From: Escherichia phage Phi1
Direction: 5' to 3' (one strand)
DNA length: 64,000 bases
Sequence record: EF437941
The notes under the pieces were generated by a model. The model searched no databases. It had not been told where the DNA came from and saw nothing but the letters and a program-made list of their open reading frames with translations. Shown here in pieces: positions 17,794 to 47,752 of the stretch. The translations under genes were made by a program, and so were the position numbers. The number at the start of each line of letters is the position of its first letter. The first letter of the stretch is position 1.

Positions 17794-19845
17794 TTACATT
17801 TTAAATTTATCTGGCATTGCGTCTACAGATACCAGATCAGCGATAAGCTGACGTAGAGTTGCCTTATCTGCTTTCTTACGTTCGGTTTTAGCTTCGCTAA
17901 TGAAGCTGGAGAAAGACAGGTCAGAAGCAGGTTTAACAACACCTTCACGGATGAATGCATCACCGTCCGCGATCATCTCACCAGATTCTTGTAATGCTGC
18001 CAGTTCACTTTTGTTCATAATATGTGCCTCAATGTAATAAGTTTCTTGTGAATCCGTAGATGCCGTAGCACGAGTTACCGTATCAAAGGATAACACAACA
18101 CCGCGAGGAAGTAAAATCTCGCATTCTTTGTAAGCAAATGCTTTGTTACCTACTGGCAATACAGGGATGTTTTCCGCGCCAGCAATGGAGAAAGCAACAT
18201 TAGCGCCACCTTCACCGCGAGATCCAGCCATAGAATCTACCCCAGCAACGGCACTAGCCACGTTTGCATTCCAGCCGCCAAAAATGTTAGGTGCAAGGGA
18301 AGTGCTCACGTAGTTTTTAAAGTAAAACGCTTTTTGCTTACGTGCAGTTTCCCACATTTGAGACCGGAAGTCCATACCACGATACAGAATAGTACCCGGA
18401 TCAAGTTTAACGCCATAGTTAGAGAAGGCATTATCCAGTGCATCGCACATCTTGACCAATTCTTCTGGATCTGCGATTCCCTCAAACTCTTCCAGCTTGC
18501 GATCAGTTAGGAAGTTGTTCATATTGATGTATGCTGCATCGGCATATTCGCTCAACACAAAACCTTCCGCGCCCGGCAGATCAAGATCAATATCTGCCAT
18601 CATTTCACCCATGTTGCTAGCAATTGCTTCAAACATACCGGACGCAACATTACGAAGGGCATCGGTTTTAATCTGGGTGATATGACTACGCAGCATTTCA
18701 GCTTTTACATCTGCTGGCATAGACTGGTCTACTCGATCCATTGCCAGGGCGGTGATCTTGTTTTCGAATACTTCCTCGCTCATGATTTCTTTTAAGCGTT
18801 TGATTGATGCTGCGATAACTTCCGCAGACAACGGATCATATTGATCCTGAACTTTTACCAGTTCGCTTACTGCGTATTTTGCATCGGCTTCGCTTTCAAA
18901 AATAGTACGCATGAAACCATAGCGAGTGATAATATCACTTGTCCAGTCATTCAGAGAACGGGCGGTTGAACGTTCTAAGGCTTGACGGTCAATCAGAGTA
19001 TTAAACTGTTTCTTAGGTTCTGCTTCGGTGATATCTTCTTCCGGTTTAAGATTAATTTTTTCTGGATGATTCACATAGTCGCTGTTATAGGTCGCTTGAG
19101 TTTTCAGCATTTCTTCTTTAGTCAAACGAGATTTAGCCGCTACGCGTTGTTCCGCTTCCGCGTTTCGTTCTTCTTCTGACACAAGACTAGCCGCATATGC
19201 CTCATCTTTAGTCAGAGATTCACCAGTAGCCTTAGATACCCAGCGATCACCTAAATCACTTTCTACTTTAGTGAACAAGGATTCATCAAGTTTAATCCCT
19301 TTAATCTTATCAATCGCCATCCCGCGACGCTTGACAACAACTAAAGCGATCTTTTTGCTGGTCATTACTTCCTGCTGGAATACTTCAAACTTCGGTGTAC
19401 GACGCACCAAACGCTCTATAACGCGCTTAACCAGTTCGGTCTTACCTTTCATGCGGGATACGTTAAAACGGAACATAACAGCGTCTAATTGCGCTTTACG
19501 GGCTGTTTCCATAACCACATCAAACGCACTTGCCATAACTGCAATCGGGTTATCGCCTAGACCATTTTTAAGCTGTACAATACGACCGCTTTTGTTCATT
19601 TCGCACAGTACAACATGTGCGGTCTTGTCACCCATACGAATGATTTTAGGTGTTTTGTTGGTGAAGTTACAAAGACGGACAATCACATCTTTATCGCGTG
19701 TCTGTACTGCAAAAAGCTGTTTAGGATTCTGCTTCGGCTTTAAGCACTGTACCGGAGCAATACTGCCAAAGTTTTCTTCCTCTTCCGTCAACAGCCATTT
19801 CTCGAAAGATTCAATCATTAGATCGTCGATTTCTAAGTTAAACAT
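17794..19845 (-). CDS. alt: Alt ADP-ribosyltransferase
   Basis: 683 aa (T4 Alt is 682 aa); FTKVESDLGD, YRGMDFRS, AFYFKNYVSTSLAPNIFGGWN and EILLPRG match T4 Alt FTKVESKVGD, VFYFRNFVSTSLYPNIFGTWM and EVILPRG. Confidence 0.85.
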   Translation of the reverse strand: MFNLEIDDLMIESFEKWLLTEEEENFGSIAPVQCLKPKQNPKQLFAVQTRDKDVIVRLCNFTNKTPKIIRMGDKTAHVVLCEMNKSGRIVQLKNGLGDNPIAVMASAFDVVMETARKAQLDAVMFRFNVSRMKGKTELVKRVIERLVRRTPKFEVFQQEVMTSKKIALVVVKRRGMAIDKIKGIKLDESLFTKVESDLGDRWVSKATGESLTKDEAYAASLVSEEERNAEAEQRVAAKSRLTKEEMLKTQATYNSDYVNHPEKINLKPEEDITEAEPKKQFNTLIDRQALERSTARSLNDWTSDIITRYGFMRTIFESEADAKYAVSELVKVQDQYDPLSAEVIAASIKRLKEIMSEEVFENKITALAMDRVDQSMPADVKAEMLRSHITQIKTDALRNVASGMFEAIASNMGEMMADIDLDLPGAEGFVLSEYADAAYINMNNFLTDRKLEEFEGIADPEELVKMCDALDNAFSNYGVKLDPGTILYRGMDFRSQMWETARKQKAFYFKNYVSTSLAPNIFGGWNANVASAVAGVDSMAGSRGEGGANVAFSIAGAENIPVLPVGNKAFAYKECEILLPRGVVLSFDTVTRATASTDSQETYYIEAHIMNKSELAALQESGEMIADGDAFIREGVVKPASDLSFSSFISEAKTERKKADKATLRQLIADLVSVDAMPDKFKM

Positions 19846-20447: not shown

Positions 20448-21002
20448 TTAGTTATTTTTTAATTGCTCATCTTGCAATAGGGAAATCACATGCTGGCGAT
20501 GTTCTTCCGATTGAGGGACACCGAAAAAGTTTGTTTTGTAGAAATACTCTAATCGGTCTTCTCGTGTGCTCTCTTCCATCATGATCGCGGGTAGTCCGAG
20601 ATTTCGGAAACGTCGCTTTTCTGCTGGCGTAAAATCACTGTAATACAGCATAGAATCATCGTTACCAGCAATGCTAAACTCATCATTCATGAAGGAGAAT
20701 ATTGCGTTTAAACGCTGTTTACCGTCCACGATTTCGATCTCATAGCGAGAGCCATCATCAATCTTAGCCATTGCGATAGCACCAACCGGAAAATCATTAA
20801 TCAGGTTTTCGATAAACATACGTTTGTTTTCGGTGTCCCATACCAAAGGACGCTGATAATCTGGGTTCATGTTGATATAGCCATCTTCTAACCACGCCTC
20901 ATAAACAGAGATGACAAAGTTTTTAGTATTGGTATAGTAACGGCGTTTAGGCGTTAAACGGTTCATGTTATAGTCTCCTGAATGGATCATCACGTAAATC
21001 AA
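20448..21002 (-). CDS. DUF262 (ParB-like nuclease/NTPase domain) protein
   Basis: Motifs NPDYQRPLVWD and VDGKQRLNAIFSF match the DUF262 signature (FQR..W ... DGQQR). Confidence 0.65.
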   Translation of the reverse strand: MIYVMIHSGDYNMNRLTPKRRYYTNTKNFVISVYEAWLEDGYINMNPDYQRPLVWDTENKRMFIENLINDFPVGAIAMAKIDDGSRYEIEIVDGKQRLNAIFSFMNDEFSIAGNDDSMLYYSDFTPAEKRRFRNLGLPAIMMEESTREDRLEYFYKTNFFGVPQSEEHRQHVISLLQDEQLKNN

Positions 21003-27663: not shown

Positions 27664-28140
27664 TTATTTTTCTTGATGCTCGCGCTCGTACTTTTCGAAA
27701 TAAAATTCTACTGGCTGATCGTGGATTGAAAGCAAGCCAAAGCGTTTAGCCGCTCGCAATCCCATATTGCGCTGAATGTACTTCTGGAAGTTCTCGCGTA
27801 TACACTTACGCCAGGATTCTAAGCCCATACAGCTTTTATAAAGATTGCATTGCACACACGCCGGATTCATGTTATCAAGTATATCATGCTCCGGTTTATG
27901 CATTCCTACAACCTTATACTTCCACGATCCATCATCATTACGAGCAATTCGTCCATTTTCATCATAGACTACCTTTGAGCGTCGTAATACTGGTTTGATG
28001 TGGTCTGCGTGCCAGCGATCCCCTAGTTCCTCGCCACAATAGGCACAACGTCCACCATATTTCATTTTCAGGATCTGGCGTTGCTCTTTCTTTGACAATT
28101 TTTTAGGTTTAGGGGCTTTCGCCCCTTCATTATCACACAT
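27664..28140 (-). CDS. HNH endonuclease (putative homing endonuclease)
   Basis: HNH signature CAYCGEEL...WHADHIKP...NMNPACVQCN; start overlaps the 3' end of the DNA ligase gene. Confidence 0.7.
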   Translation of the reverse strand: MCDNEGAKAPKPKKLSKKEQRQILKMKYGGRCAYCGEELGDRWHADHIKPVLRRSKVVYDENGRIARNDDGSWKYKVVGMHKPEHDILDNMNPACVQCNLYKSCMGLESWRKCIRENFQKYIQRNMGLRAAKRFGLLSIHDQPVEFYFEKYEREHQEK

Positions 28141-29635
28141 CGAATACCTCTTTTACTGTATTTGCAGTGGTCTTGTCGTAGCGAATACGTTTGATGATCG
28201 GGAGAAATAAAGAGAACTCCGGTTCATCTTCTTTACGTGATTTGCTTCGAATGTACCCGTTGCATGTCATCTCAATGACTTTTCCGACCAGGTTATGCCG
28301 TTCAGCCCATAACATTTCTCGGTCAAGATCATTTCGACGATCGAACGGAATTACACGTTCAATACCATCATCACATTTTTCGGTTGTGGTGTCAGTCAAT
28401 CCCGATCCGGTGTTAGTCATCATTCGTCCGCACGCACTACGGACAGTAAAACCGCCCACCTTATTAGGATCTTTACTATGCGGATATACATCAACAATTT
28501 CCGCGTCGAAGTCAATCACTTCTTTAAATTTAACCTGATCTTTACTGCGACGATCTTCAAATACACCATGTAAATTTTTAAGGATAATACCTTCTAATCC
28601 CATGTTTACATAGCGATGATATACTTCGCGAGCTTCATCGAGATTGTTAACTACGGTATTTTCGATTATCTGAACACGAGGATCGTTAAGTTCTTCAACA
28701 ATCTGTTTTAGTTCCTCAAATCGATCTTTATACTGCTTCGTTGCTTTCTCGTTACCGTAGTACACATCACGGTCGATAACATCCCAGACAGTGTAAACAA
28801 TACATTGGGCTTCTTCTTTTGGAATAGTTCCTTTCAGTGATTTGTTGAGGATACCATTTCCGGTCTGACGATCTGCAACAACGGATTCTTTCACTGCTTC
28901 CGTTACTGGCGTTAATGGCATTTCCTCTTCTTCAAATATCCATGACAGAGTACCATCATAAACGCTCTCAACGAAGTTCTGCGCTGGTGTTTGCGAAAGG
29001 GTAGGCATATATACCAATTCGCCATCTAGAACAATTCCACGGCCTCGTAAACGCTCTAAAACCGCAAACAAATCATCAAGCCCTTGATAGGTATTACCTG
29101 AGCGGGTATAGATTGCTAATGTTTCCCCGTCAATATCAGCCATCCCACGAGCGCCATCGCTTTTAAGTTGTGCATACGCCGGATACTTGATATTAGCAAT
29201 AGTCTTGTCAGAACATGACGATGCAAGGTGGCACGGCTGCTGGGGGATCAGTTTCTTCCATACCTTGTTTGCAGTGGTAGCGGAACAACCGCATTCCAGG
29301 TCACGATTCAGGACCATCATTGCAACTTTAGCATCATCCTCTGACAAGCAAGTCAGAGTATCGGTAACTAGCTGTAATGCTGCATTACCAGTTACTTGAC
29401 GCGTGGCAAGTTTATTTTTAAAGACCTGTAATGCACCGGATAAAGACAATACAGACGAATAACGCGATGGTTTATCGTATTTCTTTACGCCAAACGTAAC
29501 CTGTTTGCAATATGCCAGATAAAAGCATTCTTTCAGCGTTTCATTGCTCGCGGATTCTTTCAGAATCTTTTCTTTCAGCGATGTTTTGTCTGTTGCTGCA
29601 AGCTGATTAATGATATTAAGAATTGACATTTTCAC
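28133..29635 (-). CDS. 30: ATP-dependent DNA ligase gp30
   Basis: Matches T4 ligase blocks: AMMVLNRDLECG...ANKVWKKLIPQQP, KADGAR, GELVY, NKSLKGTIPKEEAQC, EGIILKN, KFKEVIDFDAEIV. Confidence 0.9.
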   Translation of the reverse strand: MKMSILNIINQLAATDKTSLKEKILKESASNETLKECFYLAYCKQVTFGVKKYDKPSRYSSVLSLSGALQVFKNKLATRQVTGNAALQLVTDTLTCLSEDDAKVAMMVLNRDLECGCSATTANKVWKKLIPQQPCHLASSCSDKTIANIKYPAYAQLKSDGARGMADIDGETLAIYTRSGNTYQGLDDLFAVLERLRGRGIVLDGELVYMPTLSQTPAQNFVESVYDGTLSWIFEEEEMPLTPVTEAVKESVVADRQTGNGILNKSLKGTIPKEEAQCIVYTVWDVIDRDVYYGNEKATKQYKDRFEELKQIVEELNDPRVQIIENTVVNNLDEAREVYHRYVNMGLEGIILKNLHGVFEDRRSKDQVKFKEVIDFDAEIVDVYPHSKDPNKVGGFTVRSACGRMMTNTGSGLTDTTTEKCDDGIERVIPFDRRNDLDREMLWAERHNLVGKVIEMTCNGYIRSKSRKEDEPEFSLFLPIIKRIRYDKTTANTVKEVFDV

Positions 29636-30095
29636 CTCGTTTTGTTAAACGTTCACGAATATCATTGAGGATACTACAAAATTCCGATTCAGTCAATATA
29701 GTCTTTAACGGATCAGTTCCACCTATACTATGACGCAATTTCTTATTTCCGGTAGCGAGTAATGCTTTACAAAATTCTGGGTTATTCCGTGCCATCGTAA
29801 CAAATGCCAGATGTACCAGTCTGTAATAATGCTCACTCATTCGATGAATCGGGCGACCCTGAAAATATAACATGTGATTCTCTATCTTTTCGGTCCTTCC
29901 GGTTCTTTTTGCTTTGCCACCGTGCATCAAAAAGATTTCTCTTTGTCTCTGAGGGTTCTTAAATCTTAGCCCCTGTAAAAATCCTTCTGTGCTGTTAATA
30001 TCGCAACCAAATAGACGGAATGGTCTTTTATTGAAATTACTCAATTCACCCGATGGATAAGGTCCACCCGCATAGATATCAATTTCAGAAGTCAT
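29616..30095 (-). CDS. NADAR-domain (YbiA/DUF1768-like) protein, putative
   Basis: GELSNF...FGCDINSTEGFLQGLRF...ALLATGNKKL parallels E. coli YbiA FSNF...W.TSEHYFQAQKF...LLLAT as remembered. Confidence 0.4.
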   Translation of the reverse strand: MTSEIDIYAGGPYPSGELSNFNKRPFRLFGCDINSTEGFLQGLRFKNPQRQREIFLMHGGKAKRTGRTEKIENHMLYFQGRPIHRMSEHYYRLVHLAFVTMARNNPEFCKALLATGNKKLRHSIGGTDPLKTILTESEFCSILNDIRERLTKRGENVNS

Positions 30096-30249
30096 TGAAA
30101 CTAATCTCGCTAATCAGAGAGAACGGATCATAATCGTCACTAGGAATATCGATAGTAATCGAGTGAGGGTTTACCCATACACCAAACTGGTCTTCTTCGG
30201 TGAATACTTCGGTATGGATTTCGTGGATGTTTACATTCATAGTTTTCAT
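30085..30249 (-). CDS. hypothetical small protein (54 aa)
   Basis: ATG 30247-30249 with AAGGAA RBS; translation MKTMNVNIHEIHTEVFTEEDQFGVWVNPHSITIDIPSDDYDPFSLISEISFNDF. Confidence 0.4.
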   Translation of the reverse strand: MKTMNVNIHEIHTEVFTEEDQFGVWVNPHSITIDIPSDDYDPFSLISEISFNDF

Positions 30250-30301: not shown

Positions 30302-30320
30302 GGCGGGATTATTACCCGCC
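30302..30320 (-). terminator. hairpin terminator after gene 31 (minus strand)
   Basis: GGCGGG-attatt-ACCCGCC hairpin with U-rich flank on the minus strand. Confidence 0.45.
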
Positions 30321-30697: not shown

Positions 30698-31018
30698 TTA
30701 TTTATAAATTTCGACGATCTGCGCTGGAGTCAGCCCGTCTACATTAATCAGACTATCAAGCCCAAAACTACGGAAACCTTCAACTGCAATTTCATATACT
30801 GGCAAAGATGTTTCTGATTCTTTACGCGGTTTTTCGACATTAGGAACTAACCACTTTTCGTATGTTTCGAAAGGCATCAGTGCCGGATCTCGCGTGGCGA
30901 TCATCTCGCGGACAGTACCATCTTTCTTAGTAAACTGCAAAGAGTGAGTACCGACCGAAAACATTTTCTTTAGTGCTTCACGAAGTGCGATATTATCAAT
31001 TTGTTCAGTCATTATCAA
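30698..31018 (-). CDS. hypothetical protein (about 105 aa)
   Basis: ORF between cd and gene 31; start may be the third codon (MTEQ...). Confidence 0.55.
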   Translation of the reverse strand: MIMTEQIDNIALREALKKMFSVGTHSLQFTKKDGTVREMIATRDPALMPFETYEKWLVPNVEKPRKESETSLPVYEIAVEGFRSFGLDSLINVDGLTPAQIVEIYK

Positions 31019-31532: not shown

Positions 31533-31736
31533 TTAACCGTATACGCGAAAGTATTCTACTGATCCGTCGCTATACTGTTTTACATTGAATGTATTCACAC
31601 CATGATTATTTCTCATGATGACATATACACTGCGACGTTCATCGCTAAACGGCATAACTGGCGCTGGTTCAATATCAACACTAAAACCACGTTTAGCAAG
31701 TGCTTCGCCTAATTGCTTGAGTTTATCGGTAAACAT
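31533..31736 (-). CDS. hypothetical protein (67 aa)
   Basis: ORF between pseT and cd. Confidence 0.5.
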   Translation of the reverse strand: MFTDKLKQLGEALAKRGFSVDIEPAPVMPFSDERRSVYVIMRNNHGVNTFNVKQYSDGSVEYFRVYG

Positions 31737-32614
31737 TAAAAGTCTCCGTAGTTAACCTGAAAACATTCTACACCAATTGAGCGGTACATGTCAACCACTT
31801 GATCACGGTCATCTACTGCCAAAACAACATGATAACGCGGTGCAATTTCAGAGAAGAAAATCTCTTTCTTCACTTCATGATCAGGACGACGATCATTAGT
31901 TTCACGTTGAAAGTGATCACTAGGTTCAATACCCTGTTCACGCAACCATTGCAGAGTATCTTCTTCGCAAACATCCTCACGTCCTGAGCATGTAATGATA
32001 CGATAACCATTATCACGATACAGTTTAAGCATTTCGATCACTTGCGGACGCGGTTTATCTTCTTTGACCTTTGTCCAGTCAAACGGATGACGACCGCCCT
32101 TATCCGCTAATGTCCCATCAATATCAAAGATCACTGCCTTTGGCAGCATGGTATTCGGTTTGTATACTTCTTGACCCATATATTCCTGCATCAGATAAAA
32201 TTGGTTGCGCAAATGAGAAAGTGGAATTGCTTTCTCTCCGCGATAGAAATTACGTTTCTTTAGTGTCTCAAATGATTCATTGAACACTTGTTCAGTATAC
32301 ACCGCGTTAAATTCTTTTGCAAGTTCTTTGTAGAATACACGATGTTTTTCTTTCAGGTTAGTATCAGAGATAATGATACTTAATCCGCGTGATAGAGTCT
32401 CACGAGCAATCATTCTCTGAATAGTCTCTACCAGCTTTTCTTTTTCCTTAGTATACTTGTATTTCAAATGTGAGTCAACACCAAACAACATAAGACGAAG
32501 GTCATCACGATTCACATTACGATAATTACTAAACCGTTTACATGTCTCCATAGCCCATGTAGTTTTACCGGACCCAGAACAACCAACGGTTAAAATCACT
32601 TCACATTTCGGCAT
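31736..32614 (-). CDS. pseT: polynucleotide 5'-kinase/3'-phosphatase PseT
   Basis: VILTVGCSGSGKTTWA, NRDD, ISDTNL, AVIFDIDGTLA, VKKEIF, AVDDRDQVVDMYRSIGVECFQV...GDF match T4 Pnk. Confidence 0.9.
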   Translation of the reverse strand: MPKCEVILTVGCSGSGKTTWAMETCKRFSNYRNVNRDDLRLMLFGVDSHLKYKYTKEKEKLVETIQRMIARETLSRGLSIIISDTNLKEKHRVFYKELAKEFNAVYTEQVFNESFETLKKRNFYRGEKAIPLSHLRNQFYLMQEYMGQEVYKPNTMLPKAVIFDIDGTLADKGGRHPFDWTKVKEDKPRPQVIEMLKLYRDNGYRIITCSGREDVCEEDTLQWLREQGIEPSDHFQRETNDRRPDHEVKKEIFFSEIAPRYHVVLAVDDRDQVVDMYRSIGVECFQVNYGDF

Positions 32615-33066
32615 TATTTCTCCTTCGGTTTGCACCGTTCCTCATTAAGTTCTTTTCGATAATAACACATGATCAACTTACTTTCAAGTGTATATCTCTT
32701 AATATCCGCAAGCCAGACTCTGAATTTTTGGGAGTCCTCCCACGACATAGAAACTCTAGGTTTACCGTCTATTGTATCCACTTTCAGGTCAATGTCAACT
32801 TTTTCTATTGGTGCTGGTAGTGGAGGATGTAATTTCGGTTCCTGTGAATAATGGTCCATTGTACACGAAGAAAGCGCAAATACAATAGGCACAGCGAAGA
32901 CATGGATTATGGCGGTCTGAAAATTCTTATGTGCTTTCTTAAACATCCAGTGTATCACGAAAATTGAAAACACCATCAGGATAATAATGCTTGCACCTAT
33001 CCACAGATAATCAACCAGATTAAAATTGCTTATCTGCTCTTGTGTAGGCAATATTTCTATGCTCAT
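32614..33066 (-). CDS. membrane/lipoprotein, candidate o-spanin-like component
   Basis: Two hydrophobic segments, the second ending in lipobox-like ALSSC followed by a Pro-rich stretch; AGGAGG RBS; lies beside pseT where T4 encodes its spanins. Confidence 0.4.
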   Translation of the reverse strand: MSIEILPTQEQISNFNLVDYLWIGASIIILMVFSIFVIHWMFKKAHKNFQTAIIHVFAVPIVFALSSCTMDHYSQEPKLHPPLPAPIEKVDIDLKVDTIDGKPRVSMSWEDSQKFRVWLADIKRYTLESKLIMCYYRKELNEERCKPKEK

Positions 33067-40877: not shown

Positions 40878-42098
40878 TTATACTGCCATTTGAGCGGTGA
40901 TCGCTGGATGGCTTTGATAGTTGTGAATTTTAAAGTCTTTCGGAGTCTTTGTCAATACCTCATCTAAAGATTTAAATTCCGGCAACTCAATTGTTGGTTT
41001 ATCAAACGGAACACGGCTTAACTGTTCCATAACTTGATCAAAATGGTTTTTGTAAATGTGAGTATCTCCACCAGAGAAAATCAGTTCTCCTACCTCAAGA
41101 TCACACATTTTCGCTATGATGTGAGTTAACAGCGCATAGCTGGCGACGTTAAAGGGCAAGCCCAAAAAGCTGTCTACGCTTCGCTGAAACCACATACAAG
41201 ACAGTTTACCCTCATTGACATAGAATTGCACGAACGGATGACATACACCTAATACAGCATTATGTGTTCCTTGTACGTTCCACGAGTCAATAATGATCCG
41301 GCGATCCGTTGGATTGTTTTTAATTTGTTCAATCACGTTTTGTAACTGGTCTTCCCAAATCTTCGGGCGATAGACATATTCTTCATCGTCTTTAGTGCTC
41401 GATGTGTCTACGTCCATACTAACAAAGATCGTGGTATCCGGTGCTAAAATGTCACCGCCCAGATAATCACTATCAAGCAGATAATCGAAATAACCACTAT
41501 CTACCCATTCCTGGAATCCCCACAAGCAATATGCATCATTAACAAAATTAGATTGAGTCTTCCAGTGGTCTGCTACCAGAATACAATCAAACTCTTCATA
41601 AATCATACCACGCCAGATAGCACATAAACGGTCTTCTGTGTCATTGGTTGGCGTAAAGTCTTCTACCCACGGGTGTTTAAATGTATGTGTATATTTGCTC
41701 TTAACGCGCTTAATTTTGATTTCACCGTGTGGATGAATCGGTTTGCGTCGCCATGACATACCATACATATTTCCGACATTATAACCATTGAATCGCAAAG
41801 GATTCTTTTCTTTCATATCAAGACAGTTGCCGCGCCAAATGTCGAAGGCTTCTTCGTCAAACTTACCGCGTGTAATTTCCTGTAAGCGACGGCGGTCGAG
41901 TGATCCCTCCATAAACCATAGCAACTCGCCAATTACAGAGGATGTAGCCATCTTTTTAGTGGTCAGTAAGGGGAAACCCTTGCTTAAATCAATTCGCATC
42001 TCTGCGCCGAATTTAGAGAGCGTACCTACCCCCGTTCGATCTTCACGAGGCCAGCCATTATCAAGAACATCACGCAATAGTTTCAAATATTCTTTCAT
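40878..42098 (-). CDS. td: thymidylate synthase with a ~130-aa in-frame insertion
   Basis: N- and C-terminal thirds align with T4 Td (RTGVGT, LLWFM, YGMSWRR ... NPTDRRIIIDSWNV, KLSCMWFQRSVDSFLGLPFNVASYALLTHIIAKMCDL, SGGDTHIY, HPAITAQMAV); residues ~119-248 have no counterpart in T4 Td or E. coli ThyA. Confidence 0.8.
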   Translation of the reverse strand: MKEYLKLLRDVLDNGWPREDRTGVGTLSKFGAEMRIDLSKGFPLLTTKKMATSSVIGELLWFMEGSLDRRRLQEITRGKFDEEAFDIWRGNCLDMKEKNPLRFNGYNVGNMYGMSWRRKPIHPHGEIKIKRVKSKYTHTFKHPWVEDFTPTNDTEDRLCAIWRGMIYEEFDCILVADHWKTQSNFVNDAYCLWGFQEWVDSGYFDYLLDSDYLGGDILAPDTTIFVSMDVDTSSTKDDEEYVYRPKIWEDQLQNVIEQIKNNPTDRRIIIDSWNVQGTHNAVLGVCHPFVQFYVNEGKLSCMWFQRSVDSFLGLPFNVASYALLTHIIAKMCDLEVGELIFSGGDTHIYKNHFDQVMEQLSRVPFDKPTIELPEFKSLDEVLTKTPKDFKIHNYQSHPAITAQMAV

Positions 42099-43406: not shown

Positions 43407-44789
43407 TTACGCTGTCAACTCTTTTTCAAAAGATTTTACGATATACATGATAGTGCTCAATTCAGACGGCGCTACTGTTTCTGTGTAGCCATCCGGCATA
43501 TCTTCTTTTGATATATAGGAAGTTTTATCTTTCATTGCTTCCTTGATCTTGTTCTCTAAGTCTAAGATCTTTTGACCGTCTTGTAAAGTCAATTCATAAA
43601 AGATCTCGTGATCGAACTTAGAAACACGAGATTGGTTTCTCATTCGTTCTTGTGTTGTTAAATTGGTTATTCCAAACTTAACTGCCGTTAACGATTTATG
43701 TTTGTTTAGTTTCTGTACATAAAATGTTCCAGGTTTTATAGGTTGATAGCCCATTTTAGAACATTTTCTGCATCTTGTTCCAGATTGTACAAATTTACTA
43801 TATGTTGGTGTATACTCATGACCCATTTCACATGTAATTTTTAATCTTGTTTCGACCCCAGAATAGCTACCTCCACAAAATCCGTGAAATTTATTATTAC
43901 CCAACACGGAAATTATATTTTTTATTGCATCGTCTTCGTTCCTGCGACCACTACATACTCCACATCTATATCCACCATGAAAAAAATCACTAAACGCAAT
44001 ATTGTACTCGTGTCCATTATTACACGTCATATTAAGTCTCGTCCTTATATTTTCGTATTTTCCACCAACAAATCCATTGAAAATATGGTCTCCTTTGACC
44101 GAATTAATTCTATCTAACGCGGTAGTTTCTGTTAAACGCTTGGTCCCGCAGCATTCTGGGCATCTAGTTCCTTGAATAAAATGACCATACGTTGGTTGAT
44201 ATATGTGTCCATTATTACACTCTATTATTAACTTTGTTTTATGTGCACCAATGTAAGCACCACCAACAAATCCATGAAATTTTTCATCGACCAGTGCGTT
44301 GATGATATTTTGTATAGCTTCATCATTCGATTTTTTGTGTTTATTATTGCAAATTGGACATGTATTGACACCACCAATTATGCTGGAATAACATCTATGG
44401 TATTCGTGACCGTGTTCTTTACATTTTAATATAATTTTAGATGTCGATACATTTTTAAACTCTTCTGTCGTGAAACCCATAAACTCGCTATCTGTTAATG
44501 AAGATTTGATATCATCAATAACTTGTTCGGTTGATTTCTTTGCATTGGGTGCGCATAAACCACACTTGGTTTTTCTTCCAACTAGTGTTTTAATAGTTTT
44601 TGTGTGTGTTGTGTGTCCTTTATCGCACATTATACATACCCTTGTATCACATCCTTTCCAATCATCAACAAACCCGAGAAATTTGTAATTTATAGAGTGA
44701 CAATATTCGCGTACTGTATTCTCGTGAATTGTCGGTTGTTTTTGTCTCTTACCAACGCAAATGTCCTTAGCAAAGTATGTTTTCATCAT
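43407..44789 (-). CDS. multi-zinc-ribbon repeat protein with C-terminal GIY-YIG/T5orf172-like domain (putative mobile endonuclease-like)
   Basis: Four tandem ~50-aa modules of pattern hGF.GG.Y...L...C..GHEY...Y..F..G.RC..C plus an N-terminal zinc ribbon; C-terminus GTFYVQKL...LTAVKFGITNLTTQERMRNQ. Start set at the ATG pair with GGAGGA RBS (44787-44789). Confidence 0.55.
   Translation of the reverse strand: MMKTYFAKDICVGKRQKQPTIHENTVREYCHSINYKFLGFVDDWKGCDTRVCIMCDKGHTTHTKTIKTLVGRKTKCGLCAPNAKKSTEQVIDDIKSSLTDSEFMGFTTEEFKNVSTSKIILKCKEHGHEYHRCYSSIIGGVNTCPICNNKHKKSNDEAIQNIINALVDEKFHGFVGGAYIGAHKTKLIIECNNGHIYQPTYGHFIQGTRCPECCGTKRLTETTALDRINSVKGDHIFNGFVGGKYENIRTRLNMTCNNGHEYNIAFSDFFHGGYRCGVCSGRRNEDDAIKNIISVLGNNKFHGFCGGSYSGVETRLKITCEMGHEYTPTYSKFVQSGTRCRKCSKMGYQPIKPGTFYVQKLNKHKSLTAVKFGITNLTTQERMRNQSRVSKFDHEIFYELTLQDGQKILDLENKIKEAMKDKTSYISKEDMPDGYTETVAPSELSTIMYIVKSFEKELTA
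43413..43418 (-). promoter_or_regulatory. early promoter -35 element (TTGACA) with conserved leader
   Basis: Plus tgtcaa; leader tttcgatgtttgtattata; no obvious stem-loop. Confidence 0.4.
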
Positions 44790-44839
44790 TTTTATCCTCC
44801 GTTGTTCGATGTGTGCATGATACATGACCACATAAGCAT

Positions 44840-47152: not shown

Positions 47153-47752
47153 TTAACCCTCTTTAGTCATTAATTGAAAACCACGTTCAGCTTTTGAGAT
47201 TTCGCTAGGACTTAAATCGTCACCCACATATTCTAGCATCATTTCTCGGATAATGTCAAGTGCTTTTTCATCACCTGATTTTAACTCGAACTCAAGTTCA
47301 TAATGAGCAGTGTCGCCCAATCCTTCGCCTACTTTGCCATAATAGAAAGTGTCTTTGCACATTTCCACTATACCACAACCCATATCTAGAGTCAATGACT
47401 TTCGATATGTCATTACTTGCATTATTGTAGTGATATAGTCGGAGTTTACCCCTAGACTATCAATAAAATGGACGAACTCATCCCAGTTTGAAAATGTCAT
47501 TTCATCGCGGTTGAATAGTCCAGATTCATTATCACCCATTTTGATCATGATCTCTGATTTTCTACAGTCAAGTCGTGCATAAATTCCTTTTTGACGTAGA
47601 GCATGATCTTCGGTATCATAATAAAATTCGTGTTTTAATATGTTATCTCGATCGACGATATTATAACCGTCATACATTGCCACCCACAAATCACAGATGG
47701 TTTCGACGCCAATTTGTGAGTGTGCATAGTATTTTAACTCAAGTTCTTTCAT
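47153..47752 (-). CDS. CYTH-domain protein (CyaB/ThTPase-like triphosphate tunnel metalloenzyme), putative
   Basis: N-terminal KELELKYY (the ExExK motif) and C-terminal YELEFELK acidic strand motif typical of CYTH domains; 199 aa. Confidence 0.45.
   Translation of the reverse strand: MKELELKYYAHSQIGVETICDLWVAMYDGYNIVDRDNILKHEFYYDTEDHALRQKGIYARLDCRKSEIMIKMGDNESGLFNRDEMTFSNWDEFVHFIDSLGVNSDYITTIMQVMTYRKSLTLDMGCGIVEMCKDTFYYGKVGEGLGDTAHYELEFELKSGDEKALDIIREMMLEYVGDDLSPSEISKAERGFQLMTKEG

Follow-up and report, generated by a model that had tools for sequence, protein, structure and literature searches.

Phage NADARs and resistance to DarTG1

The NADAR superfamily was reportedly defined by de Souza and Aravind. 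The gp30.3 proteins of phages are the "phage NADARs," and gp30.3 of phage T4 has been named AdfN, for anti-DarT factor NADAR (PMC11825919, PMC11125620; Nat Commun 2025, Toxins 2024). T4 AdfN strips ADP-ribose from DarT1-modified DNA and gives resistance to DarTG1; it is impaired by the substitutions E36A and K43A and by C-terminal truncation (PMC11825919). In vitro, T4 gp30.3 hydrolyzes guanine-ADP-ribose on DNA (PMC11125620) and does not hydrolyze cytosine-ADP-ribose (PMC12945103). Ectopic AdfN did not relieve defense by DarTG2, which involves thymidine-ADP-ribose, in plaque assays (PMC11825919). More broadly, all NADAR families tested hydrolyze guanine-ADP-ribose (PMC12945103).

Genetic data point in the same direction. 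By transposon sequencing, insertions in T4 adfN were lost only when DarTG1 was present (bioRxiv 10.1101/2025.11.20.689424). T4 AdfN is fully functional only during T-even infection (PMC11825919), and its activity is therefore context dependent. Tevenvirinae phages Bas35-47 of the BASEL collection are all resistant to DarTG1, as reported in a paper that does not name their genera or mention Krischvirus (PMC11825919). The counter-defense function of the gp30.3 family is thus already published; within the library searched, we found no paper linking RB49 or Krischvirus to DarTG.

Genomic context of gene 30.3

The window analyzed here is a 64,000-nucleotide stretch of DNA from Escherichia phage Phi1 (record EF437941). 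A first-pass annotation, made from the sequence alone, had proposed a 159-aa ORF at 29616-30095 as a NADAR-like gene next to DNA ligase, leaving its strand unstated. This ORF is present in the ORF list, on the minus strand, and the following features surround it:

29616..30095, minus strand: gene 30.3, ortholog of adfN, a 159-aa phage-type NADAR (predicted ADP-ribosyl-DNA glycohydrolase), core domain only
28133..29635, minus strand: gene 30, ATP-dependent DNA ligase, 500 aa, GTG start (PF01068, E = 4.7e-22)
30085..30249, minus strand: ORF 31.-1, 54 aa, upstream of 30.3 (ORF list; gp31.-1 in RB49 record AJ550428.1)
30302..30320, minus strand: GC hairpin plus T-run resembling a terminator, located between ORF 31.-1 and gene 31 (consensus scan only)

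The 5.1 kb around 30.3 is 98% identical to the Krischvirus phages MIZ4, GEC-3S, and RB49, and on nucleotide comparison the window is assigned to a Krischvirus (RB49-like) T4-type phage. Gene 30.3 is confirmed as a real gene rather than a chance ORF because its product is 100% identical to gp30.3 of RB49 (Krischvirus; record AJ550428.1), because tblastn retrieves a homolog from 1508 phage records (mostly labeled "hypothetical protein"), because it scores highly against PF08010 (see below), and because its dN/dS is low. The last value, 0.12, was obtained against L002, a syntenic metagenomic relative that is 69 to 72% identical, with dS near saturation. Gene 30.3 is under purifying selection.

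The claimed adjacency to DNA ligase proved correct: the ligase ORF comes next downstream, its start overlapping the 3' end of 30.3 by 20 nt. The ligase gene is a same-direction neighbor and not part of the enzyme. On the other side, the stop of ORF 31.-1 overlaps the ATG of 30.3 by 11 nt, and the two genes are therefore probably cotranscribed and translationally coupled. ORF 31.-1 has no match in Pfam; a 54-aa ORF occupies the equivalent place in L002, where the gene order 31 / 31.-1 / 30.3 / 30 is kept. The hairpin at 30302..30320 may mark the 5' boundary of a 31.-1/30.3/30 unit, a weakly based suggestion, as the count of terminator-like sites is not above shuffled expectation. A promoter scan gave 18 sites against 16.0 +/- 3.9 in shuffled sequence, which is no excess, and no promoter is claimed.

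Two further genes lie close by. A 158-aa HNH endonuclease ORF (27664-28140, minus strand) follows the ligase gene directly, with an 8-nt overlap, and is probably a homing endonuclease insertion. The genes for dCMP deaminase and gene 31 flank a 106-aa WYL_2 (Sm-like SH3 barrel) protein (30698-31018, minus strand), which is kept at the equivalent position in L002.

Gene 30.3 also shares its block with RNA-repair genes, namely, a polynucleotide kinase at 31736-32635 in the window and rnlA in L002. This arrangement would suit an alternative in which 30.3 mainly degrades soluble ADP-ribose derivatives, such as immune signaling nucleotides or RNA-repair by-products, rather than DNA adducts. Iyer et al. 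(2022) made such a proposal for phage NADARs on contextual grounds, citing early expression with ADP-ribosyltransferases (ARTs) and co-occurrence with Macro, SLOG, and Nudix domains (PMC9503650). That proposal is older than the experiments, in which T4 AdfN acts on ADP-ribosylated DNA (PMC11825919) and loss of T4 adfN sensitizes the phage specifically to DarTG1 (bioRxiv 10.1101/2025.11.20.689424). A soluble substrate has been shown in the literature for no gp30.3-type protein, and we regard this alternative as improbable.

Family membership and fold

The NADAR motifs named in the first-pass annotation are all found in the translation: G16-ELSNF21, F29-GCDINSTEGFLQGLRF45 (FGCDINSTEGFLQGLRF), and A111-LLATGNKKL120. 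The protein belongs to PF08010 (Phage_30_3, "Bacteriophage protein GP30.3"), scoring 132.5 bits against a cutoff of 36 (E = 1.2e-38) and covering profile positions 2-138 of 138. It also matches PHROG 652 (phrog_652; E = 2.5e-45), which is annotated as function unknown. Against the Pfam NADAR model PF08719, the single sequence scores 15.5 bits, below the gathering cutoff of 35.1. An NCBIfam entry, "NADAR family anti-phage protein DS32_2," was rejected, as its score of 13.8 bits against a cutoff of 240 does not amount to membership.

Plain searches of PDB sequences were unconvincing for NADAR. With the single sequence, no NADAR match was found, and with profiles of 12 or 67 family members, YbiA was retrieved weakly (E = 0.12 and 0.06, respectively). 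The top single-sequence match, DltA (E = 3.8e-4, residues 45-151), has a different fold and was discarded as spurious, being contradicted by both the fold search and the family data. The fold was therefore tested with a structural model and profile-profile alignment. Using hhalign, the 67-member family profile aligned with full-length Escherichia coli YbiA at 92.5% probability (E = 4.9e-7, 129 columns), and 14 of the 67 members individually matched PF08719 at an E value of ≤0.01. An AlphaFold2 model built from a 12-sequence alignment (mean pLDDT 94.3, pTM 0.89) retrieved 2b3w, the structure of E. coli YbiA, in a Foldseek search (E = 3e-6). The model shows the NADAR (YbiA) fold, a helical core flanked by small beta-hairpins, with the core domain only.

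The first-pass annotation had left its assignment to be judged by profile or structure comparison, and hhalign, the AlphaFold2 model, and Foldseek all return a NADAR fold. Its label of YbiA/DUF1768-like protein stands in part. The NADAR fold and superfamily hold; the YbiA subfamily does not, given the subthreshold PF08719 score and the presence of His122 in place of Glu, and the family is instead PF08010, the phage NADARs. As judged from alignments and profiles, 30.3 is thus placed in the NADAR superfamily and outside the YbiA subfamily.

The PF08010 family is large, its members falling into 1665 clusters at 50% identity. Family size was taken from an exhaustive representative search, the initial homolog search having given 13 proteins. 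Of the 162 top representatives (P0014-P0161 among them), 65 exceed 220 aa. Some carry fusions to BspA-type LRR repeats (P0073, P0110), Lgt (P0086), or an FtsW/RodA-like membrane domain (P0114), and others have tandem PF08010 copies in which the catalytic Glu is missing from one copy (P0031, P0058). Some of these long, fused, or tandem entries could be gene-calling artifacts.

Active-site residues and the Arg44 variant

BLASTP aligned the window protein over its full length with a T4-type gp30.3, that of phage LZ (38% identity, E = 7e-31). From this and the family alignments, the following functional positions were located:

29985..29987, minus strand: Glu37 codon GAA, predicted catalytic Glu, contacting the distal ribose (T4 AdfN E36; PnNADAR E43), by alignment
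29964..29966, minus strand: Arg44 codon AGA, at the phosphate-/adenine-binding Lys position (T4 AdfN K43; PnNADAR K50; E. coli C7 K95), by BLASTP to the T4-type protein
29730..29732, minus strand: His122 codon CAT, within the last-strand HSIG motif, a phage-NADAR signature, by alignments
29625..29690, minus strand: C-terminal alpha-helix, residues 136-157 (AlphaFold2 secondary structure; the BLASTP alignment extends to the very C terminus of the T4-type protein)

By BLASTP, Glu37 pairs with T4 E36, and hhalign sets it against the SEH-motif Glu of YbiA. Of 166 family domains, 97% have Glu at this position. His122 is invariant in both family alignments (12 and 67 sequences), is present in 97% of the 166 domains, and falls opposite the Glu of the YbiA LVEH motif in hhalign. 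Phage NADARs have been described as carrying His in the last strand where YbiA carries Glu and DarG1 carries Asp (PMC11125620). MAFFT paired His122 with another YbiA His (GGHGKG); we favored the hhalign pairing with the YbiA Glu, since that pairing is consistent with the published structural equivalence. The C-terminal helix is intact; the RB69 allele, which has lost this helix, is inactive (PMC11825919).

Across the 166 domains, the near-invariant positions L18, S19, N20, F26, E37, Q41, Q51, K63, R85, H122, G125, L134, T135, and E138 are all kept in the window protein. It departs from the family at five others: Lys to Arg at 44, Trp to Phe at 78, the deletion of one Trp, Met to Thr at 36, and Cys to Phe at 55. 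Position 78 is Trp in 94% of domains. The deleted residue is Trp in 91% of domains and Ala in the T4-type protein of phage LZ, which is annotated as "similar to 30.3 of T4."

Position 44 pairs with T4 K43 by BLASTP (phage LZ) and with the Lys of the YbiA QAQK motif by hhalign. It is Lys in 96% of the 166 domains and Arg in only 4; a basic side chain is kept here. Arg44 is common to the window protein, L002, and Acinetobacter phage AB-Navy97 (Lazarusvirus, 47% identity), and all three proteins have the motif S[TM]EGFLQGLR. The loci with Arg for Lys are as follows:

29964-29966, minus strand: Arg44 codon in the window
L002:5001-5480: Arg-for-Lys locus in L002
L004:1492-1974: Arg-for-Lys locus in L004

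The change from Lys to Arg at position 44 matters to some extent. In the E. coli C7 DarG1-NADAR, the equivalent substitution, K95R, kept hydrolysis in vitro and did not rescue cells from DarT1 (PMC11543638). One reading of this result, together with the loss of a Lys found in 96% of domains and a Trp found in 94%, is that RB49-type 30.3 is a diverged NADAR, with altered specificity or weakened activity, that may give no protection against E. coli C7 DarTG1. The Lys and Trp changes would then have retuned it to another ADP-ribosylated base, another DarT1 variant, or another nucleic acid. In favor of this reading, Arg44 is fixed in a clade that reaches down to 47% identity and includes an Acinetobacter phage, under purifying selection, a pattern that hints at adaptation and not at decay. 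However, Arg supports catalysis in vitro in that same C7 protein (PMC11543638), the catalytic Glu and signature His are intact, and hydrolysis of guanine-ADP-ribose has been seen in every NADAR family tested (PMC12945103). We consider this reading unlikely. Maintenance of Arg44 across the clade, under purifying selection, leads us to take it as probably compatible with function.

A related suggestion, which we hold only tentatively and judge to be rather doubtful, is that the RB49/Lazarusvirus subclade (Arg for Lys, Phe for Trp, STEGFLQGLR) represents a functionally retuned AdfN. If so, Arg44 would be adaptive and not a neutral substitution, and the enzyme might be directed at another ADP-ribosylated base or another DarT1 lineage, or might act without the T-even-specific cofactor that T4 AdfN seems to need. 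The variant poses a small, testable question, as a natural Lys-to-Arg change is fixed in a phage clade while its engineered equivalent abolishes the antitoxin function of a bacterial DarG1.

ADP-ribosyltransferase genes and other loci in the window

The two ART-domain proteins mentioned in the first-pass annotation are present, and both match PF03496:

16891-17715, minus strand: ADP-ribosyltransferase, 274 aa (PF03496)
17794-19845, minus strand: ADP-ribosyltransferase, 683 aa, about the size of T4 Alt (PF03496)

The two ART genes are adjacent to each other. Their presence (one Alt-like, one of 274 aa) about 10 kb from 30.3 had led to the suggestion that 30.3 takes part in the phage's own ADP-ribosylation economy, reversing or editing the marks that its ARTs place on host proteins or RNA. 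NADARs do remove guanine-ADP-ribose from RNA in vitro (PMC12945103). However, the reactions described for NADARs break N-glycosidic bonds at nucleobases or, for YbiA, in riboflavin intermediates, and cleavage of protein-ADP-ribose is reported in none of the four studies concerned (PMC11125620, PMC11543638, PMC12945103, PMC9503650). In addition, T4 shows no phenotype on losing adfN unless DarTG1 is present (bioRxiv 10.1101/2025.11.20.689424), and the ART genes lie apart from 30.3. The suggestion finds no supporting evidence here or in the studies consulted, and we assign it a very small probability, smaller still than that of the soluble-derivative alternative above. Neither of these two alternatives has direct support, and both are contradicted by T4 genetics.

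Pfam scanning of ORFs covered the regions 16.4-22.0, 27.7-31.0, and 38.6-48.7 kb of the window. The macrodomain gene tk.4/AdfM was sought at about 40-48 kb and was not found there; nrdA, td, frd, 32, 59, and rnh occupy this region instead. The same region holds a 406-aa thymidylate synthase ORF (40878-42098, minus strand) whose match to the Pfam model of 266 positions is split in two; an insertion, an extension, or a fused element could account for the ∼140 extra residues. Between frd and gene 32 lies a 474-aa protein (43407-44831, minus strand) that combines a CapR homology domain with a DUF4379 treble-clef zinc finger, and a 199-aa CYTH-domain protein (PF01928, E = 1.4e-6; 47153-47752, minus strand) adjoins RNase H. 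Beyond the ART genes, a 184-aa ORF (20448-21002, minus strand) carries a GmrSD_N/DUF262 domain (PF03235, E = 5e-20), a domain of type IV restriction enzymes that is phage encoded here.

Predicted function of 30.3

Very probably, 30.3 is the Krischvirus (RB49-type) ortholog of T4 30.3/adfN, a stand-alone, core-only N-glycosidase of NADAR fold that would act against DarTG1. The mechanism that we propose draws on the T4 ortholog and on solved NADAR structures (8bau complex). Host DarT1, part of the DarTG1 system and activated in infection, would ADP-ribosylate guanine N2 in phage single-stranded DNA, and replication would be blocked. The 30.3 enzyme would then bind the ADP-ribose, with Arg44 and probably Lys63 and Arg85 at the pyrophosphate and with Glu37 and His122 flanking the distal ribose. 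Hydrolysis of the N-glycosidic bond between ribose and guanine would yield unmodified DNA and restore replication. In effect, 30.3 would be a phage-borne orphan type IV antitoxin.

Both the guanine-ADP-ribose DNA substrate and the anti-DarTG1 role are inferred from T4 AdfN, which is 38% identical. The first-pass annotation had raised counter-defense by reversal of DarT-type DNA ADP-ribosylation, and this idea gains support by analogy, as the activity has been demonstrated for the T4 ortholog gp30.3/AdfN. The idea needs narrowing, since the behavior of the T4 protein points to guanine-ADP-ribose, the product of DarT1, and away from thymine-ADP-ribose (DarT2) and cytosine-ADP-ribose. The published function of T4 gene 30.3 was thus reached from sequence alone. 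The label "hypothetical protein" in Krischvirus and T4-like genomes can be replaced by "phage NADAR / AdfN-like ADP-ribosyl-DNA glycohydrolase." Beyond the natural Arg variant, little is scientifically new, as this is a named gene of a known phage and the fold and function of its family are published.

Comparison with known NADARs

Among the characterized NADARs, 30.3 differs from E. coli YbiA (2b3w, PF08719), an N-glycosidase of riboflavin intermediates, in its PF08719 score (15.5 versus 35.1 bits) and in carrying His122 in place of the subfamily-defining Glu. In cells, YbiA fails to counter the toxicity of DarT1 (PMC11125620).

The differences from DarG1 (BC4488-type; Geobacter lovleyi 8bat, E. 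coli C7) are of another kind. There is no adjacent DarT1 gene, the neighbors of 30.3 being ORF 31.-1 and ligase. The last-strand residue is His122 and not Asp, the protein lacks an N-terminal extension (159 aa, all core), and the structural alignment with the DarG1-type NADAR shows 11% identity. By analogy, 30.3 may work like DarG1 as an orphan, and its features place it outside the DarG1/BC4488 type.

The closest likeness is to T4 AdfN. In contrast to the T4 protein, 30.3 carries Arg44 at the position of T4 K43 and Phe78 in place of Trp. The local gene order also differs: in the RB49 type, 30.3 abuts ligase gene 30, whereas in the T4-type phage LZ, 30.2 directly follows 30.3, and 30.4-30.9 and rIII precede it. 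Like T4 AdfN, 30.3 is a member of PF08010 with a core-only NADAR fold, the Glu (E37, equivalent to T4 E36), the last-strand His, and an intact C-terminal helix, and in both phages the gene sits in the block between genes 31 and 30.
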